From Deltaproteobacteria bacterium (GTDB taxonomy: Bacteria > Myxococcota_A > UBA796 > SXON01): 26,996 nucleotides of DNA. How positions within the stretch are numbered: the first letter of the stretch is position 1; every line of letters starts with the position of its first letter. The notes beneath the pieces are model-generated. The model was not told where the DNA came from and searched no databases. It saw only the letters and a program-made list of their open reading frames with translations. The stretch covers positions 1 through 26,996 of the forward strand of contig CANKTH010000066.1 of assembly GCA_947486185.1 (NCBI GenBank). The letters run 5' to 3'. This document shows, one piece after another, positions 20,049 through 21,383 of the stretch. The position numbers and the translations under genes were made by a program.

Positions 20049-21383
20049 ATGGGTCTCTGGTCCACCCTCACTCAGCATGCAAAGGCGCAGTTCCTGGACG
20101 TCATCCAGTGGCTGGACGACTCCAACAACACGCTCGTCTATCGTTTCCCGGTGTTCAACCAGGCGATTCAGGACGGTGGCAAGCTCGTGGTCCGCGAAGG
20201 CCAGGCTGCGGTGTTTGTCGCCGAAGGGCGCCTCTCCGACGTGTTCGGGCCCGGCACCTACGAACTCTCCACCCGCACCACAGCGATCAGCGGCTTCTTC
20301 GAGAGCATCAAGTACGGCCTGAACATGCCGTACAAAGGGGATATCTACTTTATCTCCACGCGGCAGTTCACCAACCAGAAGTGGGGCACCTCCAACCCCA
20401 TGATGCTGCGGGACGCCGACCTCGGCGTGGTACGGGTTCGGGCTTTTGGAGCCTTTGCCTACCGGATCACCGATCCCGCCGCGTTCATCCGCGAAGTGGT
20501 GGGCACCGCCGGGCTGTATACGACCGAAGAGATCAATGGCCACGTCAAACGAAAGCTGGTCAGCGCCCTGGCCGACACCATCGGCGAGGCCAAGATCCCG
20601 GTGTTCGACCTGGTCTCGCAGTACATGGACCTGGGTGACGCCCTCCGGCAGCGCCTCACCGGCTGGTTCCAGGAGAACTACGGCCTCACGTTGACTGACT
20701 TTGTCGTCGAGAACATCTCCGTGCCGCCCGAGGTCGAGAAGATGATCGACACCCGGTCGAAGATGGCGTTGGCCGGAGACATGAACGCCTACACCCAGTT
20801 CCAGATGGCCAACGCGCTCCCCGACGCAATGACTCGGCCGGGCGCCAGCAACCCGATGATGGACGCGGGAATGGGGCTCGCGATGGGCCAGATGATGGGC
20901 AACCAGTTTGCGCGGGCCCAGCAGGCTCCTGCGACTTTTGCCCCCAACACGGGCCTGTCTGCGGCGCCGCCGCCGCCACCCCCGCCGATGGAGACCCGCT
21001 ACCACTACAATGGCGTGGGCGGTCAGGCGGAGCTCACCGCACGCGAGATCGCGGCGCGGGTGGCCCAGGCCCGTGACGGAGCCCACAACGTGTGGGCCGC
21101 AGGCTGGGCGGGATGGAAGAAGTGGTCAGAGGTGCAAGAGATCGTGGCGCTGGTGCCCGCGGTACCGCCGCCTCTGCCCACCGTCTCGGTGTTCCACTAC
21201 ACCGGCCCCGACGGCGCTACCGCGACCCTCTCGGGCACCGACGTCGCGGCGCGGGTACGGAGCGCGCCGGGCGGTCGCCACCTCGTGTGGAAAGAAGGTT
21301 TCGCCTCGTGGACCGACGCCCGGGAGGTCGGGGAGATCGCGGCGCTGTTGGGGGGAGGGCCGCCACCGCCACCGCCGATCTAG
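20049..21383 (+). CDS. SPFH/band-7 domain protein (COG4260 'virion core protein-like' family) with two C-terminal GYF-like DUF4339 repeats and polyproline tracts
   Basis: GGAGG RBS precedes the ATG at 20049. The N-terminal ~270 aa are SPFH-like. Two tandem repeats follow, YHYNGVGGQAELTAREIAARV...VWAAGWAGWKKWSEVQEI and FHYTGPDGATATLSGTDVAARV...VWKEGFASWTDAREVGEI, matching the GYF_2/DUF4339 pattern. Each is preceded by a proline run (APPPPPPPM, VPPPLP) and the C-terminus is GGGPPPPPPI. Confidence 0.8.
   Translation: MGLWSTLTQHAKAQFLDVIQWLDDSNNTLVYRFPVFNQAIQDGGKLVVREGQAAVFVAEGRLSDVFGPGTYELSTRTTAISGFFESIKYGLNMPYKGDIYFISTRQFTNQKWGTSNPMMLRDADLGVVRVRAFGAFAYRITDPAAFIREVVGTAGLYTTEEINGHVKRKLVSALADTIGEAKIPVFDLVSQYMDLGDALRQRLTGWFQENYGLTLTDFVVENISVPPEVEKMIDTRSKMALAGDMNAYTQFQMANALPDAMTRPGASNPMMDAGMGLAMGQMMGNQFARAQQAPATFAPNTGLSAAPPPPPPPMETRYHYNGVGGQAELTAREIAARVAQARDGAHNVWAAGWAGWKKWSEVQEIVALVPAVPPPLPTVSVFHYTGPDGATATLSGTDVAARVRSAPGGRHLVWKEGFASWTDAREVGEIAALLGGGPPPPPPI
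20966..20990 (+). repeat. (CCG)n-type simple repeat encoding a polyproline tract inside the SPFH/GYF gene; a second one lies at 21358-21380
   Basis: gcgccgccgccgccacccccgccg and gccgccaccgccaccgccg, read directly from the sequence. Confidence 0.6.

Follow-up and report, generated by a model that had tools for sequence, protein, structure and literature searches.

A probable anchor-less SPFH scaffold of the YdjI/SamI family with proline-flanked GYF_2 repeats, whose C-terminal tails may bind one another

SPFH proteins organise membrane-associated assemblies in all domains of life. What does such a protein do when its C-terminal tail holds GYF-type domains, known as binders of proline-rich sequences, side by side with proline runs of its own? 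This question is raised by a gene at positions 20049-21383 (+ strand) of a 26,996-nt stretch of contig CANKTH010000066.1 from the Deltaproteobacteria bacterium assembly GCA_947486185.1; this whole stretch is called the window in the following. A preliminary description of this gene had reported an SPFH domain, two GYF repeats and proline runs, which was borne out at exactly these coordinates by the open reading frame (ORF) list, Pfam and family profiles. It had further proposed a self-crosslinking membrane microdomain lattice. Based on the results given below, we consider it highly probable that the gene product is an anchor-less cytoplasmic SPFH scaffold of the YdjI/SamI family, as far as its identity is concerned. 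For the composite reading, in which the tails of such a SamI-type scaffold would be zipped together by GYF_2 domains binding PPP motifs in trans, analogy with characterized proteins leads us to assume about an even chance. The gene and the parts of its product are:

20039..20043 (+): Shine-Dalgarno sequence GGAGG, 7 nt 5′ of the ATG (read directly from the sequence)
20049..21383 (+): SPFH-GYF coding sequence, 444 amino acids (aa), stop codon included (ORF list)
20136..20768 (+): SPFH domain of the Band_7_1 (YdjI/SamI) type, residues 30-240 (PF13421, E = 5.5e-76; YdjI, E = 2e-31; Foldseek)
20727..20831 (+): helices after the SPFH core, residues 227-261 (AlphaFold2 (AF2) secondary structure, helices 227-241 and 245-261)
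20850..20909 (+): Gly/Met-rich low-complexity segment NPMMDAGMGLAMGQMMGNQF, residues 268-287 (alignment of homologues)
20967..20987 (+): proline tract 1, PPPPPPP, residues 307-313, 3 residues before repeat 1 (sequence, alignment)
20997..21152 (+): GYF_2 repeat 1, residues 317-368, Trp-rich derived copy, VW..GW.GWK.W (repeat profile, AF2)
21153..21179 (+): proline tract 2, VPAVPPPLP, residues 369-377, between the repeats (sequence, alignment)
21189..21350 (+): GYF_2 repeat 2, residues 381-434, ancestral-type copy, GRHLVWK.G..W..A (PF14237, 21.7 bits)
21351..21380 (+): proline tract 3, C-terminal tail GGGPPPPPPI, residues 435-444 (sequence, family statistics)

The N-terminus of the protein aligns with those of 74 homologues, and a 100% identical protein is encoded on a 52-kb ENA metagenome contig. 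At E ≤ 1e-3, 3740 homologues were found; no NCBIfam model matches the protein. The 444-aa translation contains no cysteine, and its tail has the order PRS-GYF_2-PRS-GYF_2-PRS, where PRS stands for a polyproline motif.

To which kind of SPFH protein does the first part belong? Residues 30-240 match PF13421 (Band_7_1) over model positions 1-210 of 211 with 255.3 bits (cut-off 24; E = 5.5e-76), and PF01145 reaches 53.9 bits (E = 2.9e-14). The domain is modelled by AF2 with a predicted local distance difference test score (pLDDT) of 80-94, and a Foldseek search with the predicted fold returned stomatin (9z7u, 3.5e-9), HflK/C (7vhq, 4.6e-9), prohibitin (8rrh, 9.6e-9) and also flotillin. YdjI/SamI of B. 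subtilis (P0122), which was retrieved with a sequence serving only as probe, aligns in BLASTP to residues 12-257 of the window protein (26% identity over 248 residues, E = 2e-31). The P0122 locus encodes, in this order, PspA, YdjG (PF08271, TFIIB-type zinc ribbon), YdjH (PF04536, TPM domain) and YdjI. YdjI/SamI, a soluble SPFH protein, contains a low-complexity segment and ends in a zinc finger (PMC8581546; bioRxiv 10.64898/2026.02.06.704340). It interacts with itself, and its arrival at the membrane depends on the membrane proteins YdjG and YdjH (PMC8581546). PspA is recruited by it and SamGH signalling is held back (PMC8581546; bioRxiv 10.64898/2026.02.06.704340), and the SamI preprint points to a higher-order oligomer on the basis of predictions and unpublished data (bioRxiv 10.64898/2026.02.06.704340).

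Neither a transmembrane (TM) segment nor a hairpin anchor was found in the SPFH-GYF protein: the N-terminus is polar, and the best 19-residue Kyte-Doolittle window (1.41) lies in the Pro-rich linker between the repeats. Membrane-anchored SPFH cages, in contrast, carry a TM segment or hairpin at the N-terminus, and their walls are long coiled coils; the window protein has neither, its helices ending at about residue 261. As it has no anchor and is a homologue of the soluble YdjI/SamI, the “membrane microdomain” of the preliminary description finds no support. Across the helices 227-261, the pLDDT drops from about 80 to about 60; in the model they occupy the place of the coiled coil that forms the walls of SPFH cages, being much shorter, and it is this position that suggests a role for them. 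The Gly/Met-rich segment NPMMDAGMGLAMGQMMGNQF that follows is kept throughout the family, in Myxococcota-type metagenome-assembled genomes (MAGs), Bacteroidota and Firmicutes, and has a low pLDDT. Its G274, G276 and G280, as well as G265 just before it, are invariant in 75 homologues. As a side observation, the segment is glycine-zipper-like and matches the “low complexity region” of YdjI/SamI (P0122). The SPFH fold is common to HflK/C, stomatin, prohibitin, flotillin, QmcA and the window protein (Foldseek 3.5e-9 to 1e-5) and oligomeric scaffolding is expected; by analogy, the window protein would assemble into a ring- or cage-like homo-oligomer.

Are the repeats GYF domains? Judged by Pfam only, the call is borderline. 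PF14237 (GYF_2) scores 25.9 bits for the whole protein against a gathering score of 25.8, 29.5 bits in two stretches for the tail alone, 21.7 bits (E = 1.8e-4) for repeat 2 and 11.4 bits (E = 0.28) for repeat 1 alone, and these matches reach only the C-terminal half of the model. In single-sequence searches of the PDB, the GYF domain of GltJ (7z3c) was found only marginally (E about 0.1). E-values of the repeats with hidden Markov models (HMMs) of their own family are circular and were not used as evidence. Nevertheless, the GYF identity is firm because of the evidence from the family as a whole. A Mucilaginibacter orthologue gives a full-length GYF_2 match of 59.7 bits, 46 of 53 family repeat units match PF14237 individually, and a profile of the 53 units finds 7z3c along the full domain with E = 8e-6 (profile positions 4-57, chain residues 15-69). 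Both repeats are modelled by AF2 as beta-beta-alpha-beta-alpha at a pLDDT of 96-97, and in fold searches with them GYF domains rank first or close to first, although the scores are modest. Thus, the assignment to DUF4339/GYF made in the preliminary description, for which HMM searches had been proposed as a check, holds at family level.

Y320, G322, H346, W349, G352 and W356 of repeat 1 and H411, W414, G417, W421 and A424 of repeat 2 are invariant in the 75 homologues. The pattern W-x2-G-x3-W, in which the strand-3 Trp is followed by a Gly and another Trp, is found in all 53 of 53 units, Bacteroidota included. A nearly invariant strand-3 tryptophan was described for bacterial GYF domains before (PMC2034487). 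The eukaryotic GYF family (PF02213) matched neither the SPFH-GYF protein nor its repeats, in which the G-Y-F triad is absent, and gave E < 0.01 for only 6 of the 53 family units. Since single-repeat orthologues resemble repeat 2 (53 of 56 score higher with the repeat-2 profile), repeat 1 is a duplicate that was inserted later. As to the ligand, the GYF domain of M. xanthus GltJ binds a proline-rich sequence of AglZ with measured micromolar affinity, and its ligand face is the beta-sheet surface with the residues most conserved in prokaryotic GYF domains; the CD2 peptide, a canonical eukaryotic GYF ligand, is not bound (PMC11135422). The premise that GYF domains are binders of proline-rich sequences therefore has a direct bacterial precedent.

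Each repeat had been described as paired with a proline tract, and indeed three tracts bracket the two repeats. Tract 1 is encoded by mixed CCG, CCA and CCC codons, and its P309-P311 are at least 90% conserved or invariant. In tract 2, P370, P371, P374 and P375 are at least 90% conserved, and the blocks covering it have a mean pLDDT of 79-86. The flanks were counted for 334 GYF units of 200 family proteins (120 database homologues and 80 genomic loci, the two sets overlapping in part). A PPP motif occurs within 18 residues upstream of 322 and within 15 residues downstream of 324 units (96-97%), with a median gap to the domain of 3 residues upstream and 2 downstream. In the SPFH part, PPP is present in only 2 of the 200 proteins. 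The last PPP run ends 1-4 residues before the C-terminus in 191 of 195 family proteins and, consequently, cannot have a linker role. Conservation of the tracts in orthologues, set beforehand as a test of the pairing, is therefore strong. Genomes rich in GC might be expected to contain proline runs in any case; this cause is ruled out, as in Bacteroidota orthologues, from genomes of 34-48% GC, the domain is still preceded by PPPPP or PPPLP and the C-terminus still carries (V/M)PPP(I/L/P). Loci below 50% GC have PPP upstream of 31 of 34 and downstream of 34 of 34 units. From this pattern of conservation, we conclude that the proline tracts are under selection and reflect more than chance or GC bias.

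To what extent is the pairing specific for SPFH proteins? A library-wide search with repeat 2 yielded 122 cluster representatives of varied architectures with 1-7 repeats. In 72 non-SPFH proteins of at least 250 aa, PPP flanks 24% of the units upstream and 35% downstream, compared to a background of 1.9% in the same proteins, which corresponds to a 12-18 fold enrichment next to GYF_2 in unrelated architectures. However, 22 of the 72 proteins have no PPP flank at all, and GYF_2 arrays without any PPP exist (e.g., P0241 with seven units). The latter rule out that the tracts are an obligatory structural part of the GYF_2 fold. Across these sequences, flanking PPP thus accompanies GYF_2 generally but not obligatorily, and it has become near-fixed in the SPFH fusion. 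Apart from this, proteins consisting almost wholly of tandem GYF_2 domains were seen, with up to seven units and in part PPP-free (P0241, P0249, P0244), as well as giant proteins of 1300-1475 aa which end in 2-4 PPP-flanked GYF_2 units (P0243, P0260, P0280).

The loci of related genes were examined for partners. In the 80 related loci and the window, the protein carries one GYF unit in 41 and two in 35 cases, while two are cut by a contig end and three, the Firmicutes members L067, L075 and L080, have CxxC zinc ribbons at the GYF_2 position. Therefore, GYF_2 and zinc ribbon are alternative C-terminal modules on the same scaffold. Only one neighbour recurs widely among the 80 loci: in 27 of them, belonging to Bacteroidota, some Myxococcota MAGs and Firmicutes, a co-oriented gene directly downstream encodes a protein of about 375 aa, which contains two zinc ribbons, has a TM helix at its C-terminus and is homologous to YdjG/SamG over the full length (E = 1e-37 and 2e-34). 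Examples from these 27 of 80 loci are:

L046:7159-8286: YdjG/SamG homologue
L030:7505-8602: YdjG/SamG homologue
L075:7286-8590: YdjG/SamG homologue

No YdjH or PspA stood out in the neighbourhood clustering of the YdjG-bearing loci, in which no search was aimed at these two proteins. On this basis, the pair of SPFH-GYF and YdjG would represent a two-gene version of the Bacillus samGHI module. Neither another conserved PRS-bearing partner nor another GYF protein was seen in the 80 loci. The preliminary description had pointed to a co-oriented lipoprotein gene (21503-22240) downstream of the window gene and to a gene for a secreted protein upstream, and had proposed to check whether the SPFH-GYF and lipoprotein genes are conserved neighbours. 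In the 80 loci, the lipoprotein gene was matched only once, at a place upstream and on the opposite strand; the secreted-protein gene is retained in no more than the 8 closest loci. As functional partners, both were therefore rejected on neighbourhood conservation (1/80 and 8/80). Moreover, since both flanking products have predicted export signals, they would be located across the membrane from the cytoplasmic SPFH-GYF protein.

How might the parts of the protein work together? In the composite reading, the SPFH part would oligomerise as a ring or cage at the cytoplasmic face of the membrane, to which it would be recruited by a partner encoded outside the window. The flexible Gly/Met-rich segment would display many copies of the C-terminal module. 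Each GYF_2 domain would bind polyproline via its conserved Trp-bearing beta-sheet face, like GltJ-GYF, and the likeliest ligands would be the PPP motifs of neighbouring subunits, bound in trans and head to tail. Tails zipped in this way within an oligomer, and possibly bridging oligomers, could offer partners a multivalent, displaceable docking surface. Such self-binding is plausible because a bacterial GYF domain, that of GltJ, binds a proline-rich sequence experimentally.

Several points weigh against this reading. Pro-rich linkers are common in bacterial multi-domain proteins. Tract 1 is disordered in the model of the full-length monomer (mean pLDDT about 53 for residues 301-310). In a model of the tail only, the tract blocks reach a pLDDT of 71-86, which may reflect only the stiff geometry of polyproline, and no docking was deduced from the pLDDT of the tracts. 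The PPP-free GYF_2 arrays such as P0241 mean that GYF_2 function needs no PPP. In the precedent itself, GltJ-GYF binds somewhere within an AglZ sequence of 90 residues and does not take a canonical GYF ligand (PMC11135422). Further, the YdjG-type proteins inspected contain no proline-rich sequence or PPP. The 27-kb window holds no YdjG/SamG, YdjH or PspA (best tblastn E = 0.047; Pfam of the window genes) and hence offers no YdjG-like partner for membrane recruitment. The family counts, finally, are phylogenetically non-independent, and the protein and locus sets overlap.

Which other explanations would account for the tail? The tracts may be nothing but stiff polyproline-II spacers which keep the GYF_2 domains off the SPFH oligomer and off each other, the ligand of the domains being external: either a proline-rich protein from another locus, comparable to AglZ in the case of GltJ, or the YdjG-type zinc-ribbon protein. 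We regard this as a realistic, though unlikely, alternative. Most tracts do sit between domains, PPP-free GYF_2 arrays exist, and the GltJ-GYF partner is bound in trans instead of on the own chain (PMC11135422). The YdjG-type neighbour in 27 of the 80 loci also fits, as does the link between GYF and TFIIB-like zinc ribbons noted by Balaji and Aravind (PMC2034487). However, a spacer role does not account for the last tract, which spaces nothing so close to the C-terminus (191/195 proteins), nor for the short and fixed distance of 2-3 residues to the domain and the retention of the motif in low-GC genomes; besides, the YdjG-type proteins inspected have no PPP motif, and no conserved PRS-bearing neighbour was found in the 80 loci. 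Rather improbable in our view is autoinhibition in cis, with the flanking tracts as pseudo-ligands on the adjacent GYF_2 domain which are displaced by a partner or a stress signal. The gap of 2-3 residues between domain and PPP leaves, on geometric grounds, little chain for folding back onto the beta-sheet face, tract 1 is disordered in the full-length model, and the stoichiometry of three tracts to two domains favours intermolecular exchange. On the other hand, GltJ has an intramolecular contact between zinc ribbon and linker which is competed by MglA-GTP (PMC11135422), SamI is a regulator that restrains SamGH signalling (bioRxiv 10.64898/2026.02.06.704340), and the tail-only model gives rather high pLDDT values to the tract-containing blocks (71-86).

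A membrane-embedded SPFH microdomain lattice with long-range self-crosslinking, which works with the lipoprotein and the secreted protein, is very improbable. The SPFH fold with its multivalent GYF/PRS content and the co-orientation of the neighbouring genes would agree with it, but the protein has no membrane anchor and is homologous to the soluble YdjI/SamI. The lipoprotein gene is found in 1 of 80 loci (other side, other strand) and the secreted-protein gene in the 8 closest loci only, and the export signals of both neighbours direct them to the opposite side of the membrane. Intra-oligomer zipping, cis autoinhibition and plain spacers fit the data as well as the “self-crosslinking lattice” of the preliminary description. 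The tracts could also be thought to act before the protein is complete. When elongation factor P (EF-P) is lacking, ribosomes should stall on a protein with three PPP+ runs, and the runs might serve mainly as EF-P-dependent pauses which tune expression or the co-translational folding of small domains. This expectation follows from the established biology of EF-P, and the mixed codons exclude slippage repeats. But a pause 1-4 codons before the stop codon helps no domain to fold, and the enrichment of PPP next to GYF_2 (24-35% versus 1.9%) points to a role at the protein level; a mainly translational function is, therefore, scarcely credible.

Binding in trans can be extended to larger assemblies. 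The tail, written as (PRS-GYF_2)n-PRS, would then be a self-complementary, multivalent “sticker” array that causes reversible networking or condensate-like clustering of SamI-type scaffolds under the membrane, a speculative extension which we consider unlikely. If it were true, such clustering would replace recruitment based on zinc ribbons in the many lineages carrying the tail; it would also be a bacterial counterpart of the multivalency of SH3 domains and proline motifs in signalling assemblies of eukaryotes and extend to many PPP-flanked GYF_2 arrays.

How much of this is new? Bacterial GYF domains were discovered by Balaji and Aravind (2007), who named “SPFH/Band 7+GYF” (gi 32472385) as one of the prominent architectures, suggested from flanking proline-rich stretches that these interact with the GYF domains, and noted a neighbourhood link of GYF to TFIIB-like zinc-ribbon proteins (PMC2034487). 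As both the architecture and the idea concerning the proline flanks are contained in that work, the central idea of the preliminary description had already been published. The window gene is a correctly observed, already catalogued architecture and no new system. The domain pair, the proline flanks, the strand-3 Trp and the zinc-ribbon neighbourhood noted there are all seen in the window protein or, for the neighbourhood, in its relatives. In 2007, however, one representative was given, with no statistics or experiments, whereas the window protein has two repeats, an ancestral-type and a Trp-rich duplicate. The link to YdjI/SamI and YdjG/SamG could not be drawn at that time. In the literature searched, no experiments on an SPFH-GYF protein are described. 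What is added here is the quantification of the flanks, their GC-independent conservation, the two-repeat variant with its origin, and the placement in the YdjI/SamI-YdjG/SamG system.

Compared with YdjI/SamI, the window protein shares the PF13421 subfamily, the missing anchor, the Gly/Met-rich segment after the SPFH domain and, beside the genes of its relatives, YdjG/SamG. It differs in ending with PRS-flanked GYF_2 repeats instead of a zinc ribbon (PF13248 in YdjI), and the window is without pspA, ydjG and ydjH, which belong to the YdjI operon (pspA-ydjGHI / samGHI). A function has been shown for Bacillus YdjI/SamI only (PMC8581546; bioRxiv 10.64898/2026.02.06.704340). The GYF domain of GltJ (7z3c) is homologous to the repeats, shares their fold class with a four-stranded sheet plus a pair of helices, is likewise without the eukaryotic G-Y-F triad, and from a Myxococcota-type lineage. 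But GltJ has one GYF domain at the cytoplasmic N-terminus of a membrane protein, beside a zinc ribbon and with its ligand on another protein; the window protein has two copies, placed C-terminally on an SPFH scaffold, and conserved proline motifs are seen only in the protein itself. Eukaryotic GYF domains (CD2BP2, GIGYF2, Smy2; PF02213) possess the GYF triad and a “side-on” pocket, both absent from the window repeats. In GltJ-type domains, by contrast, binding is through the sheet face, and the CD2 peptide is no ligand.

It is only recently that work in Bacillus has linked the YdjI/SamI branch to envelope-stress signalling and the recruitment of PspA. There is a large cross-phylum set of SamI-type proteins, from Myxococcota-type MAGs to cultured Bacteroidota (e.g., Mucilaginibacter and Chitinophaga), in which proline-flanked GYF_2 replaces the zinc ribbon, and many members keep the gene of a SamG-type partner adjacent. 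With this set, the suggestion that the proline flanks of bacterial GYF domains are ligands of these domains, made on bioinformatic grounds 18 years ago, becomes cheaply testable, and it provides a route to the assembly and switching of anchor-less SPFH scaffolds.

What surrounds the gene in the window itself? The window genes are of the housekeeping kind: rpoN, a molybdenum hydroxylase, sucCD, gltA, sdh, metK, aspS and an amidohydrolase. Among the protein models of known anti-phage defence systems in PADLOC, none matched the SPFH-GYF protein or its three neighbours, and membership in such a system was rejected. At 18236-19835 (+), a PAS-domain protein of small size, about 215-231 aa, which matches HisKA faintly, is followed by a 298-aa protein with a hydrophobic N-terminal leader. 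These PAS and signal-peptide genes 5′ of the SPFH gene are kept only in the 8-10 closest loci, a pattern which, in these sequences, is that of synteny by descent. A promoter scan found no promoter-like site. In a terminator scan, six weak terminator-like matches were obtained, none of which bears on co-transcription of the gene with its neighbours. The 213-bp gap 5′ of the SPFH gene contains a 9-bp inverted repeat, CCTGACGCC / GGCGTCAGG, with a 15-nt loop (19873-19905, +), which could be the terminator of the upstream gene without a T-tract, or a regulatory hairpin.

Further observations concern other genes of the window. A gene at 17671-18381 (-), divergent from the PAS gene, encodes a Lamin Tail Domain protein (PF00932, E = 5.2e-9) with a hydrophobic N-terminal segment suggesting export, and the gene at 5868-6818 (-) a TerB-domain protein (PF05099, E = 1.3e-8). 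The rpoN (sigma-54) gene at 14-1006 (+) is apparently cut at its 5′ end by the edge of the window. Finally, a 198-aa eCIS_core (DUF4157) protein (25801-26397, +; PF13699, E = 2.5e-9), a domain associated with extracellular contractile injection systems, is encoded alone beside housekeeping genes.

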